Position numbers and translations under genes: made by a program. A stretch of 42,961 nucleotides of DNA from IMG/VR virus record IMGVR_UViG_2531839476_000018; one strand, 5' to 3'. Numbering within the stretch: the first letter of the stretch is position 1; every line of letters begins with the position of its first letter. The notes under the pieces were generated by a model. That model was not told where the DNA came from, searched no databases, and saw only the letters and a program-made list of their open reading frames with translations. Origin of the DNA: a virus (taxonomy: Duplodnaviria > Heunggongvirae > Uroviricota > Caudoviricetes). This document shows, piece after piece, positions 2,312 through 14,612 of the stretch.

Positions 2312-2876
2312 CATCCGGCGCGGTGCTGGTATCTGTTGCCGTCACCGCGTCAATGTAATCCAGCACGGCGTTAAGTCGGGTTGTTTCTGCCTGAGTCAGT
2401 TTCCGTCCGGTCTGTAATTTCAGCTGAATCAGACTGATGGAAGCCATTGCAGCATCAATCAGTGACTGGCGCTGTGCTTCTGCCGCTTCTACTGCGGCGC
2501 TATGCTGTGCCTCGGTATCCGTCACCCATTTCTCACCATCCCATTTATCGTATGGCGTTAACGGTGAAAGCGTGACATAACCGTCTTTGATGGCACCGAT
2601 ATAATCCACTGTAACAGCTGCGCCATTTTCAGTTGAGTAAACGGTCTCATTGCGATGGTCTTCTTCATGGCTCCATCCCTTACCCGTAAATACTGCCACT
2701 TTTCCCGGAATGTTTTCGCCCGGGTCAATACCAGTGGAACAGGCGGGTATACTTACGCCAGTATTAATATATTCATCAGACCAGCCGGTATATTCATACG
2801 TTACTGCATTATAATAAAAACAACGCATATCGCCCGGCACTGTAGCCAGCCCATTTTCATCAAAAACAGGTTTCAT
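2283..2876 (-). CDS. Tail-fibre assembly protein (expressed orientation)
   Basis: 197 aa ending ...TSTAPDVIWPELPEA; directly downstream of the fibre gene; 3' end convergent with and overlapping the alternative tfa. Confidence 0.75.
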   Translation of the reverse strand: MKPVFDENGLATVPGDMRCFYYNAVTYEYTGWSDEYINTGVSIPACSTGIDPGENIPGKVAVFTGKGWSHEEDHRNETVYSTENGAAVTVDYIGAIKDGYVTLSPLTPYDKWDGEKWVTDTEAQHSAAVEAAEAQRQSLIDAAMASISLIQLKLQTGRKLTQAETTRLNAVLDYIDAVTATDTSTAPDVIWPELPEA

Positions 2877-3763
2877 TATTTAGCCCTCACCAGAAAGTTA
2901 AATGCAATATTTCGTGGACGGGTTTCTGTACCTACATTTTCACTAATTTCACCATAACGTTTAACACTACGAGAGCTAATAGCTCGTAGTGAGGAAGGCA
3001 CATTAAGACCGGGTTCGTCCGTTTTAACTATTCCCCCGTCACCATATGTAGCCAGTATTCCTGGGTTTACTCCTTCCCGTGCACTTCCTGCGGCAAGCCC
3101 GTCCCCCGTCCACAATTCCATATTGTGTGCATGATCCATAATTGTGTGTGATTGCCCTGAAAGTAGGGTACGTCCGACATCAATCCCGCGCCCGTCATCC
3201 CAGATACGAATGAAATCACCGCGTGCGTCAGGTAATGCCAGAGCCGGAAACACTTTCGCCAGCACAGGGTAATCAGTGGCAGAGAATTTCGCGCCGTTGA
3301 ACTTCAAAAACACCATACCGGACCAGCTATCGATTACGGTATCTGGCATTGCAGCGGACGGCCAGAAGAACGGAACGCCAATAGCTGGAGCTCCTTCTCC
3401 CAAACCAAGGTTTTCGAGAGCCGTTTCCACCGTGCCATCCGATTTGATATCACCAAACGGATTCTTGCGGCTCAGGTATTCAACAGCAAACCCCGATCCC
3501 AGCAATTCAACAAAACCGGGCAGATCACCATTATCAAGCACATCCCGTTGCGTTTTGTCACTTACAAACTGGGCCAGAGCTGCAGCAATAAAGCTGGCCT
3601 GCCGAATAACCTTATTGACTTGCGCACTGGATGCTTTCCCTGCTGTAAATCCGGATAAAAGCGCAGGCAACGCTTCCCATTCCTCCTGCGACATAACATT
3701 GGCATTCCGATCAGTTGCAAACGCTTTAAAGTCATTTTTCGCCATCAGAGTAATACTCCCCAT
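2876..3763 (-). CDS. Tail fibre protein (constant N-terminus about residues 1-115, variable C-terminus inside the invertible segment)
   Basis: 295-aa ORF with a fibre-like N-terminus ([30 protein letters not shown]...); the crossover site lies in-frame at the codons for LENLGLGEG. Confidence 0.75.
3395..3420. repeat. hix/gix-like recombination site (left boundary, inside the tail-fibre gene)
   Basis: ttctcccaaaccaaggttttcgagag, inverted relative to the site at 1460-1485. Confidence 0.7.
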
Positions 3764-3767
3764 GCCC

Positions 3768-4424
3768 CTACATCAAAACCACTGATGAATTCGTTATCCA
3801 TATCAAAACCAAAAATTTTGAACCTTCCGATGGGGTTTCCACCGAAGGTGTTTCAATGCCACCCGCCCATACCCCGGCGGCTTTTACTGTGAGATACCCC
3901 TGTTTAATTGCCGCAATTAACTCACGCGATACATCTGAAATATCAGTATCAGGAAAGACCCAGACCGATATCGTCATGTCATGGTTATCGACTATCTGCA
4001 TTCGCAGTCCGGATCCTGCTGTTGCCGCGTCAAGAATTGCCGGAAGCGAATCATTCCGTCCGTCCCAGTTATTAATCGCAATCTTCGCTTTAAGGATGAC
4101 ACGATAAGTTTCATCGCTGAGGTACATGTATCCGGAATCAGGATCGTATGGCCCCTGCCATACACCCTGATCATATCCAAGCCCGTCGGTATCCCAGCTG
4201 AAATAGACACCTGAAATAGGCTGGCTGACAACACGGCTACGTCCGATCCACAATCCCAGAATGTCAAGTTGCACACCAACCGCAGAGTCAATATCAAATG
4301 CAGTAATCAGCCCTCTGGTGGCAGCCGCAACATCAATAAGCGGCCGGGTCATCAGATCAACATGTGCAAGAAATTTAGGTTTGGTGGCGTGGTAGTTTGT
4401 GATTAGTTCGGTGTATTTGCTCAT
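3768..4424 (-). CDS. Baseplate / tail protein (P2 gpI-like or Mu gp48-like position)
   Basis: 218-aa ORF between the baseplate J-like gene and the tail fibre; the family call rests on position and recollection. Confidence 0.5.
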
Positions 4425-9810: not shown

Positions 9811-10397
9811 TAGCCGCCCCCCAGTAATGACGCCACGTTACCCGTGATGCTTTTCAGCAGTGAAGTATCTGGAGGTTTTGTGGTTTTGTTGCCGCTGTTC
9901 TGTACCGCCGACGTGCTGGCCCCTTCCTTCATGTTGGTTTTATCCGCGACGGTAATCTGCTGTGTCCGGGAGATAATGACCTCCCTCAGGGTGAGGACGG
10001 CGGACAGGACGTTTTCGGTTGTCTTGTCCGTCGTCACTTCCAGCGCCCGGATCAACATGTTGCTGTACAGCCGTTTACCGGTTACCACATCGAAGGGGAT
10101 ACGGCTTTCCTGCAGATCCAGTAGCTCCTGATACGTCTGCTGAGGACTCAGGCCGAGCAGGCTGGTAGCCGTCAGGTTACTGGCAAAATCCAGCAATGCG
10201 CCGCCACCGGCGAAACCAACCTCCATCACCACTTCTGACGGTTTTTTATAGGCATGATCAGCGACAGCGGCCCCGACCTCTACCGGATGCTCTGTTATTT
10301 CAAGCATATCTGTATGCTTCTCTGAAATAACAACACTGGGAACAATCATTCCTATTTTTCTGCTCTGCTGATGAAAAAGTGTAGAGAGAATATCCAC
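9810..10397 (-). CDS. Tail protein (tape-measure-distal baseplate assembly protein)
   Basis: 195-aa ORF whose start overlaps the tape-measure stop. Confidence 0.4.
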   Translation of the reverse strand: MDILSTLFHQQSRKIGMIVPSVVISEKHTDMLEITEHPVEVGAAVADHAYKKPSEVVMEVGFAGGGALLDFASNLTATSLLGLSPQQTYQELLDLQESRIPFDVVTGKRLYSNMLIRALEVTTDKTTENVLSAVLTLREVIISRTQQITVADKTNMKEGASTSAVQNSGNKTTKPPDTSLLKSITGNVASLLGGG

Positions 10398-12382
10398 TAA
10401 CCCACCCTCACCTGATTACTTCGCATGACCTGAGCATTTGCAGACTGTTGCCGACGTGCAACCTCATTACCGACAGCGTGCGGATCTCCGCCACCGTAAA
10501 TATGGTAGGTATTTTGCTGGTTAACCTCTGTCACTTTGCCACTAATTCCCGCCACGGCAGCCTTATTAATCAGCTCTCGAGAATAGATATTTCTTCCATT
10601 CTCATGCTGGATAATGCTGCTCATCAATGCTGACATGGTTTGCGGATCGCTCATATTCAGGGCAGCCCGGGGATCCACTCCCAGTCGTTGCGATACAGCC
10701 CTGATATACGCGGTTGTGTTGTTATTATCAGACGCAGGTGCCCAGGTAGAGATAATTTTCTCCACACTGTTTATTCCCCGTCCGGCGTACAGCATTAACT
10801 GACGAGCAAGAGCCCGTAATCCATCAAAAGCGGTTTCAAATCTGGCAAATCGCCCGCCCGGTCGTTCAAGAGAAGCCCCCGCCTGACCAGCAAAATTAAG
10901 GTTTCCCGGATTGTTATTCCGTTCTCCTCGCTTCGTAGCCTGTGCATGTTGTTCCGGCTCAGCACCTGGAATATCTGACTGAATATTTGCGCCTTTTACG
11001 GTATGAGGATTACGACCAAAATCGGTATCAATGCCAAGCCAGCGCAATGAATCTCCAATATTTTGTTTCGTGTAATCCCAGGATGACTTCGCACTGGCAC
11101 CAATATTTTCGCGATCGGAGTACAAATAAGCAGCATAAGCCATCCAGCCTTTTAACCATGGCGGTACCGGCAAACCAGATATTTTCCCGAAAGCCCCCAG
11201 AACCCTGGATACCCAGACACCCGCGATGAATGTACCGAGGATTTCCAGTGCATTTTGCCAGCCGCCAACACCATCTTTTAGTTCCAGAAGGTGATCACGA
11301 AGCCAGGTGATCGCATCCTTCGCTTTATCTATTGCCGGTTGCCATTTTTCCCAGTCGATAAGACTGTTACCGCCTTCTTTCCATGTTTTGTAGTCTTCCC
11401 ACAAGAGACCGAGAGCCACGATCAGACCGGTAATCAGCCCTATAGGTGACATCCAGAAAGTAGAGTTAAGTATCCGCATGGCGACAACCAGACCGCCGAT
11501 AACCTCTATCAGGGTTTTCGTTTCGGCATCCAGTTTCCCCCACCACTCGATGATATCTCCGACACCATCGACTATCCGAAATGCTACCCGCCCGACTATC
11601 TCACCCAGCCAGAGGATCCCCTTTATGACCTTTGTGATGGTGACTTCAATTTTGGGAAAATTTTCAATTATCTTTTTGCGCAGGTTATCAATCTGCCCCG
11701 CCAGTCCGCCCGCAAGATTCGATCCGATTTTGTCCCGCGCCATCCCGGCCATTTCACCGAGCGATTTCAGCGAGGTCATAAACCGGTTTGACGATAAGGC
11801 AGCCTGATCGGCATTAAATCCGATCGCTTTCACCATTTCTGAATACTGAGCGCTGAACTGCCCCACTCCGCGACGCATAGCCATCAGGGTATTTTCGTCA
11901 ATGCCCAGCATCTGCGCATACTGGTTAGCCCGGTAATACGGCATACCGCTGAGCTTCTGGCCTACACCTGTAAAAATAGCGGCCATGTCACGCATGTTGC
12001 CGCTGGCATCACGGGTCTGTACGCCCAGGCGATTCAGGAAGCCTTCCGCCCCGGGATTGTTACGAATAAACCGGGAGAGGCTTTCCAGAGAAGATCGCGC
12101 AGCGTCCACGCTGCCGCCAACCTGCGAAACCGCATAGCCAATAGACTGAATTCCCTGGACTGTCGCGCCGGTGCGCTGTGACGCCCAGTAAAGATTATCC
12201 AGACCGGAGGCGATCTTAGCCGTAAAGGCCACCACGGACAGCGCAGCTCCTTCAACAGCCAGCCCCATTTTGATGACATTTGCAGTTGTACCGGCGAGGA
12301 CAGAACCGAACTTTTTCGCTCCTGCATCATCCACACTGAAGCCAAGCGAGACGAGGAAATCTTTAATAGTTTCAGCGTTCAT
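10397..12382 (-). CDS. Tail tape measure protein
   Basis: Long, Gly/Ala-rich helical ORF of about 660 aa following the chaperone gene. The ATG at 12382 (MNAETIK) with a GGAGAGAGG ribosome-binding site is preferred over the upstream TTG at 12403 used by the ORF track. Confidence 0.8.
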   Translation of the reverse strand: MNAETIKDFLVSLGFSVDDAGAKKFGSVLAGTTANVIKMGLAVEGAALSVVAFTAKIASGLDNLYWASQRTGATVQGIQSIGYAVSQVGGSVDAARSSLESLSRFIRNNPGAEGFLNRLGVQTRDASGNMRDMAAIFTGVGQKLSGMPYYRANQYAQMLGIDENTLMAMRRGVGQFSAQYSEMVKAIGFNADQAALSSNRFMTSLKSLGEMAGMARDKIGSNLAGGLAGQIDNLRKKIIENFPKIEVTITKVIKGILWLGEIVGRVAFRIVDGVGDIIEWWGKLDAETKTLIEVIGGLVVAMRILNSTFWMSPIGLITGLIVALGLLWEDYKTWKEGGNSLIDWEKWQPAIDKAKDAITWLRDHLLELKDGVGGWQNALEILGTFIAGVWVSRVLGAFGKISGLPVPPWLKGWMAYAAYLYSDRENIGASAKSSWDYTKQNIGDSLRWLGIDTDFGRNPHTVKGANIQSDIPGAEPEQHAQATKRGERNNNPGNLNFAGQAGASLERPGGRFARFETAFDGLRALARQLMLYAGRGINSVEKIISTWAPASDNNNTTAYIRAVSQRLGVDPRAALNMSDPQTMSALMSSIIQHENGRNIYSRELINKAAVAGISGKVTEVNQQNTYHIYGGGDPHAVGNEVARRQQSANAQVMRSNQVRVG

Positions 12383-13012
12383 TATCCTCTCTCCATTTCT
12401 CAATGCGCCGCTGGTTATCCGCTTTTACCGCCAGATGGTCATTCAAAAGAGCAATATCGTACAAATCGACAGAGCCATCTTTAAGTGCTGTATAAGGAAT
12501 TAACCCGGCGTCAACCGGATTGAGAAGGTAGGACAGCCCGTCCGGCAGGCTGTTAAACGTCAGCCATGTTGCAGGCTCTGCGTCGTGCTGGTAAGGGGTG
12601 TAGGCAAAAAATTTCCCAGCGAATCGGCGACCACCCGCGCCACCAGCTGCAGCATGACCAGCAAGTCAATATCATCAAACATCAGTTCGCCCTGGGTAAA
12701 TACCGGAACCCATCCGTCCATATGACGCCGCGATACCACCGCAAGACAGGGATGAATAATCGCATCGGTGTCATCTTCGGTCAGGGAAGACAGTTCCTCA
12801 GCGATACGCGGGAGCATGGTTTCAAACACCGGTTTTAACTGCTCGAATTTCACGGTGTCGATTTTGCCATCAGCAGGCAAACGGGAGCGAATGCTCCCGA
12901 AATCTGACATCATTCCTGCCAGCACCGGCAGAAGTTTGCGGGTCACTTTCAGCTGATCAAAAACGCTGAGTTTTGCCGCGCGATATTTCACGCCTTTGAT
13001 TTCGAATTCCAT
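12372..13012 (-). CDS. Tail assembly chaperone: G product 12560-13012; predicted -1 frameshift GT product extending to 12372
   Basis: 150-aa ORF between the tube and tape-measure genes; the heptamer AAATTTT lies 14 codons before the stop, and the -1 frame stays open for 77 codons, ending at a TGA that overlaps the tape-measure start. Confidence 0.6.
12608..12614 (-). promoter_or_regulatory. Candidate -1 programmed ribosomal frameshift slippery heptamer (A AAT TTT)
   Basis: XXXYYYZ heptamer in the zero frame GGA AAT TTT TTG of the chaperone gene. Confidence 0.55.
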
Positions 13013-13015
13013 GTA

Positions 13016-13456
13016 TTAAAACTCCCCGAGAACCTGGTCAATCTTGCCGCAGTCAAACACCCACGGCATCGTATTACCGGTTTTAGCGTTGGCATTATCC
13101 GGTTGTTTCTGGAACGCAACACTACGTGCCGTGATGATGTCGCCGCTGACCTTGTTTCGGATCACAATAACGTTATTCCCCCATGTGGCAGAAGACTGGC
13201 TCTGTGCGTTATACGCCAGCGACAATTTTTTATTTGTCGGTGATGTCTTCAGAAGGTTAACGGTAATCGTCCCGCTTTTATCTGCATGGAGACTGTGCAT
13301 CACTTCGCCATCAGCACCGATGGTCATGGTGTTTTTAGGACCGCCCATCGCAACCACAATCCCCTCTTCAGAACTTGCAGAACCGTACCCGAGGTCAATC
13401 GAACCGGTCGGCCCGGTCAGCGTCGCAGTAACATCCATAAAAGAATAGGTAGACAT
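13016..13456 (-). CDS. Tail tube protein
   Basis: 146 aa, immediately downstream of the sheath gene. Confidence 0.6.
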   Translation of the reverse strand: MSTYSFMDVTATLTGPTGSIDLGYGSASSEEGIVVAMGGPKNTMTIGADGEVMHSLHADKSGTITVNLLKTSPTNKKLSLAYNAQSQSSATWGNNVIVIRNKVSGDIITARSVAFQKQPDNANAKTGNTMPWVFDCGKIDQVLGEF

Positions 13457-13466
13457 TCACTTCCCC

Positions 13467-14612
13467 TTAGCGAACAACGTTAATCTGTACGTCAGCGTAA
13501 TGAACCGCGCCTGCAAGTTTTATTGCAGCCTGAATCACCGGAGCCTTACGGGCTTCACGTTCTGATTGTGCCTGTTCATCCAGCGGCTGGGCGTATACGT
13601 AATAACCTTTGGGCAGCGTGTCACCTGATGACAACTGGCCAAGGTCGCCCCCGTTCCATACGCCCGGAGCAATCAGTCCATTCTGAACGGCCTGATCCAG
13701 TGATTTTTCAACATTTGATAACAGTCGGGTAATACCGGCTTCAGTCTGGGGAACTTTCGTGGTGCTGGTATAAAGCAGGTTATAGAGGTTGGTCTGCACA
13801 TAATTCTGTAACCAGTCCAGGCCGTGGCGTTCATCAAAGAAATCGCCGTTAGCCATCACTCCCTGCTGGAGGATAGCTGTATCATTCTGGTAGTACACGA
13901 ACACATTGCAGTTTTTTGCATCAAGTGCCGATGCCTGGCTGACTGTCAGTGTTTCATACCCGACACCCGGCTCCTGCTTAAACTTGAGCGTAATCGCGGT
14001 ATTACTGCCATTGAAATTAACCGTGAATGCCCGGCCAAATGCAGATAACGCAGCGTATTTATTACCCGATGAATACTGAATAAAACTGCGTGAATATCCG
14101 GCGGTTTTCAGTTTTGATGCCAAATCATCGCTGGATGCAGTCTGCAGGCATTTATCATCGCTTGTCGTAATCGCCAGAATACGGCTTACAGAAGAGGATT
14201 CGATCGCCGCAGCCACTTTCAGCCAGTCTGCATCCGGAATATCTTCATCGTCTGCAATCCCCAGCCCATACCATGAAGTATAATCGAGCATGGCATTCAC
14301 AGCCTGCTCCAGCGTCTCAGGCGTGGCCTGTTCGCTGTCTCCCTTCGTTTTCACCCAACGACCAACAAAAACCTCCTGAGGTTTCGGTGATTGAGAGAAA
14401 AACACCTGCGCAGCCTTATATTCTGGTGATTCCACGCCAAAATCTTTTCCAATATCTTCCGCGGCAGAATAACGGCGAATGCGCTCACTTACCGGAATGA
14501 TTGTGGACGGGCCGAGAATGAGTAATGCACCAAAATTTCGCCCTGATGCTGCACGCGGCGACATGATCACATCAACATTAACAACGTTTGATACAGGCAA
14601 GCCCTGTGCCAT
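13467..14612 (-). CDS. Tail sheath protein
   Basis: 381 aa upstream of the tube gene; contractile-tail gene order. Confidence 0.7.

Follow-up and report, generated by a model that had tools for sequence, protein, structure and literature searches.

A predicted programmed −1 ribosomal frameshift joining a phage tail assembly chaperone to a DUF6889 domain

The tail assembly chaperone gene on the minus strand of IMGVR_UViG_2531839476_000018 (Caudoviricetes), whose full 42,961 nucleotides are referred to here as the window, very probably yields a short and a long chaperone through an ordinary programmed −1 ribosomal frameshift in the run at 12617-12605, as indicated by comparison of sequences from diverse relatives. 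A minority of the ribosomes on the chaperone mRNA would slip back by 1 nt on G GGA AAU UUU UUG (12617-12605), with the slip timed to the decoding of UUU by Phe-tRNA at codon 135 and with either an Asn/Phe tRNA pair on A_AAU_UUU or a Phe/Leu pair on U_UUU_UUG. The shifted ribosomes would read 77-78 more codons in the −1 frame and stop at the TGA at 12374-12372, just inside the tape measure gene. Two proteins sharing their N-terminal 135 residues would result: an abundant chaperone of 150 amino acids (aa) and a rarer one of 213 aa with a C-terminal DUF6889. By analogy with gpG/gpGT of lambda and gpE/gpE+E' of P2, the two proteins would coat the tape measure protein with their common N-terminal region, the long one would use its DUF6889 extension to recruit the tube protein, and both would be absent from the virion.

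Gene order and reading-frame geometry

Profile matches to Pfam and PHROG families revealed the 5'→3' order sheath, tube, chaperone, −1 open reading frame (ORF) and tape measure, all on the minus strand. The tail sheath gene (13467..14612; 381 aa) matches Pfam DUF3383 (E=3.9e-101) and the tail sheath family phrog_205 (E=1.2e-135). It is followed by a tail tube or virion structural protein gene (13016..13456; 146 aa) that matches KPP10_Orf10 (E=8.8e-61) and phrog_280 and is named 'DUF3277 family protein' in RefSeq. The chaperone gene (12560..13012), whose short 0-frame product of 150 aa ends at the TGA at 12562-12560, belongs to Phage_TAC_15 (PF21822; E=3.3e-31, 108.9 bits against a gathering cut-off of 22) and to the tail assembly chaperone family phrog_1688 (E=7.6e-65). 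The −1-frame extension (12372..12608), with 78 codons and the TGA at 12374-12372, matches DUF6889 (PF21829; E=1.2e-20, 73.4 bits against a gathering cut-off of 23.9) and phrog_4364 (E=1.8e-23). It is the putative T-like C-terminal domain of the long product, a predicted chaperone-DUF6889 fusion of 213 aa (12372..13012) that would arise from a −1 slip within 12617-12605. The tape measure gene (10397..12382; 661 aa) matches phrog_2276 (E=1.4e-265), and its C-terminal region is transglycosylase-like, with phrog_873 and phrog_7182 matching residues ~407-649. Its proposed start, the ATG at 12382, is corroborated by the Shine-Dalgarno sequence GGAGAGAGG (12386..12394, minus strand), which lies inside the W-R-E codons of the extension and is kept in related loci, by the identical RefSeq start, and by an N terminus, M-x-x-x-x-I-[KR]-[DE]-F-L-V-x-L-G-F, that is common to even distant phages.

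Re-translation gave the chaperone 0-frame codons CTG GGA(12616-14) AAT(12613-11) TTT(12610-08) TTG(12607-05), which contain the composite slippery run G GGA AAT TTT TTG (12605..12617, minus strand). This run comprises three overlapping, in-frame X_XXY_YYZ heptamers, the only ones in the chaperone gene: G_GGA_AAT (12617-12611), A_AAT_TTT (12608..12614; Asn AAT in the P site and Phe TTT in the A site) and, one codon downstream and overlapping the latter, T_TTT_TTG (12605..12611; Phe TTT in the P site and Leu TTG in the A site). The original prediction had named A_AAT_TTT as the slippery heptamer, and it was indeed found at 12614-12608 in the correct register on the minus strand. Some details of that prediction needed adjustment: the chaperone stop (TGA 12562-12560) comes after 15 sense codons and not 14, and the −1 frame, although open as claimed, is 78 codons long and not 77. 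After A_AAT_TTT this frame reads TTT(12608-06) GCC TAC ... CGC(12377-75) before the TGA at 12374-12372, and it overlaps the last 16 chaperone codons. Its stop does overlap the tape measure gene, the two ORFs sharing 11 nt, but lies 8 nt beyond the A of the ATG (12382-12380); it does not overlap the ATG itself, as had been described, and no ATGA overlap is formed. Among the real genes of the window, a six-frame scan found an in-frame heptamer close to the gene end, followed by a long −1 ORF, in the chaperone gene alone. The second scan candidate, T_TTA_AAG at 3725 on the plus strand, was rejected, its ORF being spurious and antisense to a real gene at 2876..3763.

Conservation of the slippery run and the −1 ORF

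A first scan of viral contigs returned loci that were 94-100% identical and was useless for synonymous-site analysis for that reason; among 80 such near-identical loci, the T6 run was unaltered in the 75 where the motif pattern matched, and the other five gave no match. A genome scan and a tblastn search of phages supplied the diversity. The comparison set consisted of 80 non-identical, diverse enterobacterial loci from other species, picked without using the G-N-F-L codons. Synonymous sites within the run are frozen in this set (AAT in 76/76, TTT in 79/79, TTG in 73/74 and GGA in 75/80), and the flanking codons drift, with a synonymous entropy of 0.6-1.7 bits. The slippery nucleotides are under selection. 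A_AAT_TTT was found in 74 and T_TTT_TTN in 79 of the 80 loci, with T_TTT_TTG as the sole remaining heptamer in L134, L147, L153, L154 and L155.

The −1 ORF spans 76-78 codons in most of the 80 loci and always ends just past the tape measure ATG. In seven loci the −1 frame has a stop 1-2 codons before the run, and in L154 and L147 a stop falls within it. Over the 10 codons directly after the T-run, mean pairwise identity is 0.59 in the −1 frame versus 0.34 in the 0 frame, and the −1-frame residues right after the T-run include A (68/80), R (79/80) and P (78/80). Since −1 stops lie upstream of or inside the run and conservation switches frame after the T-run, the predicted shift would be confined to these 13 nt. 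A complete absence of recoding, in which the −1 ORF would be in decay or open by chance and the 150-aa protein would be the only one made, retains hardly any probability and is effectively refuted by the conservation data. Decay is visible in a few loci (the −1 ORF is truncated in L119 and reads through in L138, and the chaperone is disrupted in L092 and L160), whereas the ORF matches Pfam and PHROG profiles, is preserved in length and in sequence in dozens of genera and is better conserved than the 0 frame.

More distant phages, with chaperone identities of 27-39%, still show slippery motifs at the corresponding codon, together with a DUF6889-like −1 ORF of 77-82 codons; homologous slip motifs and −1 ORFs were found in phages of Burkholderia, Acinetobacter, Ralstonia, Providencia and Bordetella. 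At the position of A_AAT_TTT, Burkholderia phages Magia and BgManors32 have C_CCT_TTT and Acinetobacter phage AbTJ has A_AAT_TTT, in no case followed by T_TTT_TTG. G_GGA_AAT is the only heptamer kept in L107 and in a Bordetella phage, and the motif in Edwardsiella phage ZHS is just a T_TTT tetramer. All that stays invariant across the wider family is an NNT_TTY tetramer at codon 135, with the flanking heptamer swapped among lineages. Both the arrangement and the slip site are kept in the 80 loci and the distant phages beyond what the protein sequence requires. The long/short chaperone pair of the original prediction is thus backed by gene order, the DUF6889 match, the frozen run and recurrence in most of the 80 loci.

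The T-run also varies in length in public assemblies, with seven T's (T7) in P0001 and five (T5) in P0003, and is indel-prone, as these variants show; the T7 variant encodes exactly the 213-aa fusion, with the junction ...SLGNFFAYTP.... Such variants and the conserved T6 homopolymer are compatible with transcriptional slippage, in which RNA polymerase would add an extra U in the U6 run and the mRNA would encode ...GNFFAYTP... in one frame, a product equal to that of a slip on A_AAT_TTT. This route is nevertheless improbable. Efficient transcriptional slippage takes runs of about 7-9 or more, and the six T's here are shorter. Moreover, the two-frame arrangement is kept with four T's or none (CCT TTT ATC in Magia and BgManors32, AAT TTT ATT in AbTJ and AAT ACT TTC in the Bordetella phage), and the conserved GGA and AAT fit the heptamer rules of ribosomal slippage, not homopolymer length.

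The DUF6889 extension as coding sequence

In the window, the −1 ORF has its first canonical start (ATG/GTG/TTG) at a TTG 49 codons in, past most of the conserved domain. In 77 loci the position of the first start ranges from −46 to +61 codons, without conservation of the start codon, and in 56 of them it lies downstream of the conserved LPDG motif. Judged by these features and its conservation, the −1 stretch is real coding sequence, a C-terminal domain that has no conserved start of its own.

Database records treat DUF6889 differently, and it might be translated independently as a small free-standing protein (54 aa; 12536..12372, minus strand) that needs no frameshift. RefSeq carries a separate 'DUF6889 family protein' coding sequence (CDS), many stand-alone entries of 43-78 aa exist, and in Edwardsiella phage ZHS the domain is covered by an ATG-initiated ORF of 69 aa. 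However, the RefSeq CDS starts with CTG and lacks a Shine-Dalgarno sequence, and the N termini of the database entries are ragged (43, 46, 50, 54, 58, 62, 63, 73 and 78 aa), which is typical of arbitrary start calls. Independent translation is also opposed by the late first start, both here and in the 56 loci mentioned above, and by −1-frame conservation that begins directly after the T-run, and it leaves the frozen synonymous sites of the run unexplained. It is accordingly given very little probability, slightly below that of transcriptional slippage, and a frameshift product remains the preferred reading of DUF6889.

An AlphaFold2 model of the extension, based on a 21-sequence alignment, showed a first segment of ~28 residues that looks disordered and helices at residues 39-44 and 49-77, but its mean pLDDT of 56 made it too poor for a fold search. 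A PDB sequence search with the fusion protein gave chance matches only (E of at least 0.77).

Slip site and RNA structure

The slip may take place on A_AAT_TTT or on the overlapping T_TTT_TTG, and sequence data back each. A_AAU_UUU is within the efficient E. coli class H_HH.U_UU.Y (PMC4066793), and T_TTT_TTG is the most widely kept heptamer of the three. G_GGA_AAT is probably the weakest here, because AAT (Asn) in the A site re-pairs poorly in E. coli. The junction peptide ...ADSLGNFFAYTPYQ... would be expected from a slip on A_AAT_TTT or G_GGA_AAT, or from transcriptional slippage, and ...ADSLGNFLAYTPYQ..., 34 Da apart from it, from a slip on T_TTT_TTG.

The 13-nt run could conceivably be a deliberately compound site, although we regard this as doubtful. 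A_AAU_UUU and then U_UUU_UUG would offer successive slips sharing the Phe-tRNA at codon 135, giving rise to two proteoforms (Phe or Leu at residue 136), and their combined effect might be enough for the required shift rate even with no RNA stimulator. If so, the phages would represent a natural series in which to study how −1 frameshift efficiency depends on re-pairing in the P site, and DUF6889 would have to be redefined, from a free-standing gene to the T-like domain of a frameshift product.

A downstream stimulatory structure, suggested earlier as a check on the frameshift, was not found near the site by single-sequence folding or RNAalifold. The single-sequence fold of 12620-12480 had z=−1.3 and no stem adjoining the site; its only solid hairpin begins ~52 nt past the run and was dismissed as a stimulator, being too far away to act. 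RNAalifold analysis of 19 diverse sequences (−1.6 kcal/mol, 0 covarying pairs) gave no consensus structure. Neither the window fold nor the 19-sequence consensus fold had a hairpin or pseudoknot at the distance of 5-9 nt downstream of the heptamer known from dnaX or IS-type sites. Shift efficiency may be low because no such structure lies downstream, though lambda and P2 are also without one.

Annotation of the locus

Of 5,426 complete E. coli genomes, at least 300 have the locus. All 20 RefSeq records among the matches listed show a feature of its own for DUF6889 ('DUF6889 family protein'), which in the one examined in detail is a CDS of 54 aa that starts with CTG. In older records this ORF is called 'NTP pyrophosphohydrolase', and the closest phage records, those of the vB_EcoM-606R2 group of close E. 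coli relatives, have only 'hypothetical protein' at the locus. The locus would be modelled correctly as a joined CDS with ribosomal slippage, the long chaperone having DUF6889 as its C-terminal domain. The main value of the finding lies in this correction, and current understanding is unchanged. The tail-chaperone frameshift is near-universal in tailed phages, it is already annotated in the related phages Mulock and Magia, and the feature is ordinary. The locus represents one further well-supported example, from a myovirus lineage with DUF3383 sheath and DUF3277 tube proteins, and its natural slip-site variants could serve studies of frameshift efficiency.

Comparison with known systems

The G/GT-type arrangement of tail assembly chaperones was reportedly set out by Xu, Hendrix and Duda in 2004. 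Its sequence hallmarks are seen here: a gene pair between the tube and tape measure genes, a second ORF that lacks a conserved start and overlaps the first at its 3' end in a different frame, an in-frame X_XXY_YYZ heptamer inside the overlap, and conservation of arrangement and slip site in diverged relatives. Two phages with proteins of the same family show close parallels. Klebsiella phage Mulock (CPT_Mulock_014/015) has a chaperone that is 59% identical, the identical GGGAAATTTTTTG run and an 80-codon −1 ORF with the same overlap with the tape measure ATG, and in Burkholderia phage Magia (gp15/gp16) the motif at the corresponding codon is C_CCT_TTT. The GenBank records of both phages join the ORFs at this place into a 'tape measure chaperone frameshift product'; these are annotation calls and not experiments. 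A literature search found no mass-spectrometry, reporter or genetic study of this Phage_TAC_15/DUF6889 chaperone family.

In P2, gpE/gpE+E' involves a −1 frameshift on TTTTTTG without a 3' structure (PMC3091744). The two systems have in common an E. coli contractile-tail phage, a chaperone between the tube and tape measure genes (the FETUD tail operon in P2), a T_TTT_TTG heptamer with no downstream structure and similar product sizes (91/142 aa in P2 and 150/213 aa here). Unlike in P2, T_TTT_TTG is here fused to two more heptamers upstream, and the P2 frameshift was demonstrated by experiment, the present one being a prediction. Lambda slips on G_GGA_AAG, and the run described here opens with the near-identical G_GGA_AAT; however, the lambda tail is non-contractile, and its A-site AAG (Lys) is very shifty in E. 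coli, in contrast to the AAT (Asn) found here. The additional domain of the long lambda product is believed to interact with the tail tube protein (PMC5009743). No homology to the lambda gpG/gpT or P2 gpE/gpE' families was detected, a Pfam scan at E<=0.01 giving only PF21822 and PF21829. By all these comparisons, the locus appears to work like the lambda and P2 systems but is not a member of either at the sequence level.

Three overlapping slip heptamers at the end of the chaperone gene

The chaperone ORF (13012..12560, minus strand; 150 aa) belongs to Phage_TAC_15 and phrog_1688 ('tail assembly chaperone'). Near its end, the 0-frame codons CTG, GGA (12616-14), AAT (12613-11), TTT (12610-08) and TTG (12607-05) are followed by 15 sense codons and the TGA at 12562-12560. 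The slip site is a 13-nt compound run, GGGAAATTTTTTG, in which A_AAT_TTT (12614-12608, minus strand) is flanked by two further in-frame heptamers of the same strand, G_GGA_AAT (12617-11) and T_TTT_TTG (12611-05); the rest of the gene contains none. The original prediction had placed a −1 frameshift at A_AAT_TTT, and re-translation confirmed both the position of AAATTTT and its X_XXY_YYZ register. The −1 frame is open beyond it, from TTT (12608-06) to CGC (12377-75) on the minus strand, giving 78 codons after the slip before TGA 12374-12372. The prediction erred only in detail: its distances of 14 codons to the chaperone stop and 77 codons in the −1 frame were each about one codon off, and the −1 stop does not form an ATGA overlap with the tape-measure ATG (12382-12380), the two ORFs overlapping by 11 nt.

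The window was scanned for ORFs of at least 80 aa with an in-frame heptamer no more than 40 codons from the stop and a −1 frame open for at least 30 codons beyond, and the chaperone locus was the sole match in a real gene. The remaining matches fell in spurious ORFs, one of them antisense and one inside the tape-measure gene, or in an ordinary overlap between genes. T_TTA_AAG at 3725 (plus strand; 55-codon −1 frame) is no candidate frameshift because its 169-aa ORF (3276-3785, plus strand) is antisense to a real gene (2876..3763, minus strand).

Conservation confines the frame change to the compound run

The −1 translation matched Pfam DUF6889 (E=1.2e-20; 73 bits, cut-off 23.9) and phrog_4364 (E=1.8e-23); the chance that this ORF goes without expression is practically nil. 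Its neighbors encode a DUF3383 sheath, a KPP10_Orf10/DUF3277 tube protein and a phrog_2276 tape measure, which is the canonical position of the chaperone gene pair.

A genome scan seeded with the peptide patterns KLSVFDQLK and VARVVADSL, upstream of the slip site and leaving the G-N-F-L codons unconstrained, recovered 80 loci from other species with chaperone identities of 38-85%. Across these non-identical sequences, codon use in the run was nearly invariant (Asn AAT 76/76, Phe TTT 79/79, Leu TTG 73/74, Gly GGA 75/80), while the six codons upstream had synonymous-codon entropies of 0.6-1.7 bits, Asp being encoded by 51 GAT and 29 GAC and Ser by six different codons. The −1 ORF was 76-78 codons long in most of the loci compared, always ended a few bases past the tape-measure ATG and kept the motif ...LPDGEDYL.RPV...DG.VDL.DIA.MND.L..KADN..RI..WRE.NER. 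In the first ten codons past the T-run, protein identity averaged over sequence pairs was 0.59 in the −1 frame and 0.34 in both the 0 and +1 frames, with Ala (68/80), Arg (79/80) and Pro (78/80) following the T-run in the −1 frame. In seven loci a −1-frame stop precedes the run by one or two codons, and in two it falls inside it (L154, GGG TGA TTT; L147, CGG TAA TTT). Together, codon freezing, −1 ORF conservation, the identity switch and the −1-frame stops place the frame change within these 13 nt. The programmed −1 site is real, strongly conserved and entirely conventional, and the long chaperone-DUF6889 fusion is very probably made by ribosomal slippage within 12617-12605; the predicted long and short chaperone products are supported by family matches of the −1 ORF, codon conservation and gene order.

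Transcriptional slippage, which would also yield the fusion, has a slim chance of being the source. Of 80 close viral contigs, 75 matched the motif pattern, and in these the run (12605-12610) is T6. Public read-archive assemblies include T7 variants, in which a single frame encodes the 213-aa fusion (P0001, 16 members), and T5 variants that shift to the +1 frame (P0003, 24 members). Either sequencing errors at the homopolymer or genuine polymorphism in its length could account for them.

A few related prophage copies look decayed or altered: the −1 ORF is shortened to 37-41 codons in L119 and continues for ~260 codons in L138, and the chaperone ORF is disrupted in L092 and L160. Enterobacterial-type chaperone loci were also found in records labelled as Flavobacteriia or Bacillus: Chryseobacterium sp. 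18061 (L096; slip run CGGAAATTTTTTG) and Bacillus sp. AFS073361 (L163; AGGAAATTTTTTG), with 69-75% protein identity, and Elizabethkingia phage EKP1 (OM284015; 51% protein and ~70% nucleotide identity). L163 in particular, a 395-bp contig, looks like contamination or mislabelling.

Candidate heptamers and distant phages

A_AAT_TTT belongs to H_HH.U_UU.Y, one of the most efficient slip classes in E. coli, where cognate A-site re-pairing (UUU to UUU) counts most (Sharma et al., PMC4066793). The conserved third base of GGA is required solely by A_AAT_TTT or G_GGA_AAT. T_TTT_TTG, the experimentally established site of P2 E/E+E' (PMC3091744), is the most widely retained heptamer (79/80 loci) and the lone one left where Asn is replaced or GGA changed (L134, L153, L154, L155 and L147). 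G_GGA_AAT, for which A-site re-pairing by tRNA-Asn is poor, is the only heptamer remaining in a Bordetella phage and in a Salmonella locus (L107) whose T-run is broken (AAT ATT TTG). Slippage at either main candidate, A_AAT_TTT or T_TTT_TTG, would give a 213-aa product differing solely at residue 136, Phe or Leu.

In tblastn searches of phage genomes, chaperone matches ended at residue 134-135, the slip codon, in nearly every record. In each distant phage the homologous codons were followed by a DUF6889-like −1 ORF, of 77-82 codons in the six with a canonical heptamer. Positional equivalents of A_AAT_TTT are the sole heptamers in Burkholderia phages Magia and BgManors32 (GGC CCT TTT ATC; C_CCT_TTT), while Acinetobacter AbTJ (GGA AAT TTT ATT) has A_AAT_TTT and G_GGA_AAT without T_TTT_TTG. 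Ralstonia PY059YO380 (GGT TTT TTC) has G_GGT_TTT and T_TTT_TTC, Providencia PSTCR3 (AGT TTT TTT) has T_TTT_TTT, Bordetella IFTN9 (GGA AAT ACT TTC) has G_GGA_AAT and a T_TTC tetramer, and Edwardsiella ZHS (GAT TTT ATG) has only a T_TTT tetramer. All these phages share an NNT_TTY tetramer, located at the slip codon or beside it, that allows Phe-tRNA to re-pair one base back; the surrounding heptamer varies by lineage.

Annotation of the DUF6889 extension and the tape measure

RefSeq/PGAP annotates a separate 54-aa 'DUF6889 family protein' (12536..12372, minus strand; L002:2065-2229) with a CTG start and no Shine-Dalgarno sequence. Independent initiation of this ORF is unlikely, its chance being very slim: in the window's −1 ORF the first ATG/GTG/TTG is a TTG 49 codons past the T-run, beyond most of the conserved domain, and across 77 loci the first start varies from −46 to +61 codons, lying downstream of the LPDG motif in 56. 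Database entries for the domain span 43-78 aa and have uneven N-termini, as is typical when gene callers must guess where an ORF reached by frameshifting begins, and some in older records are misnamed 'NTP pyrophosphohydrolase'. The separate gene looks like a systematic mis-annotation of the frameshift extension. Each of the 20 E. coli RefSeq records among the matches listed carries it. The frameshift is unannotated in RefSeq E. coli genomes, where at least 300 of 5,426 contain the locus, and likewise in the Escherichia phages of the vB_EcoM-606R2 group, which are near-identical here. The practical value of the result lies in correcting annotation.

The predicted tape-measure start at ATG 12382 holds: it is preceded by GGAGAGAGG (12394-12386), is also the RefSeq start and opens an N-terminus (MNAETIKDFLVSLGF) whose pattern is kept in phages as distant as those of Burkholderia, Acinetobacter and Ralstonia. 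An upstream TTG (12403) would add the unconserved MRNGERI. The C-terminal part (~407-649) of this 661-aa protein (10397-12382, minus strand) matches endolysin and tail-injection transglycosylase PHROGs, and RefSeq names the whole 'lytic transglycosylase'; the protein is apparently a tape measure that also bears a cell-wall-degrading domain. In Edwardsiella phage vB_EpM_ZHS (L167), the gene directly after the pair (1378-1787) is labelled 'portal protein', probably a mis-annotation of the tape measure protein, judging by position and N-terminal sequence (…ILREYLVRVGFSVD…).

Comparison with known chaperone frameshifts

A downstream stimulatory structure, which the original prediction had proposed to search for, was found neither in the window fold (no significant local RNA structure, z=−1.3) nor in the RNAalifold consensus of 19 diverse sequences (−1.6 kcal/mol, no covarying pairs). 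P2 is alike in this respect, no hairpins having been found downstream of its frameshift site (PMC3091744). The locus adds little new, being one more case of the known tail-chaperone frameshift. Burkholderia phage Magia already has it annotated as a joined CDS, as does Klebsiella phage Mulock, in which the chaperone is 59% identical and the 13-nt run exactly the same. It follows the same logic as lambda gpG/gpGT (PMC5009743) and P2 gpE/gpE+E' (PMC3091744), but at the sequence level it is solely Phage_TAC_15 plus DUF6889.
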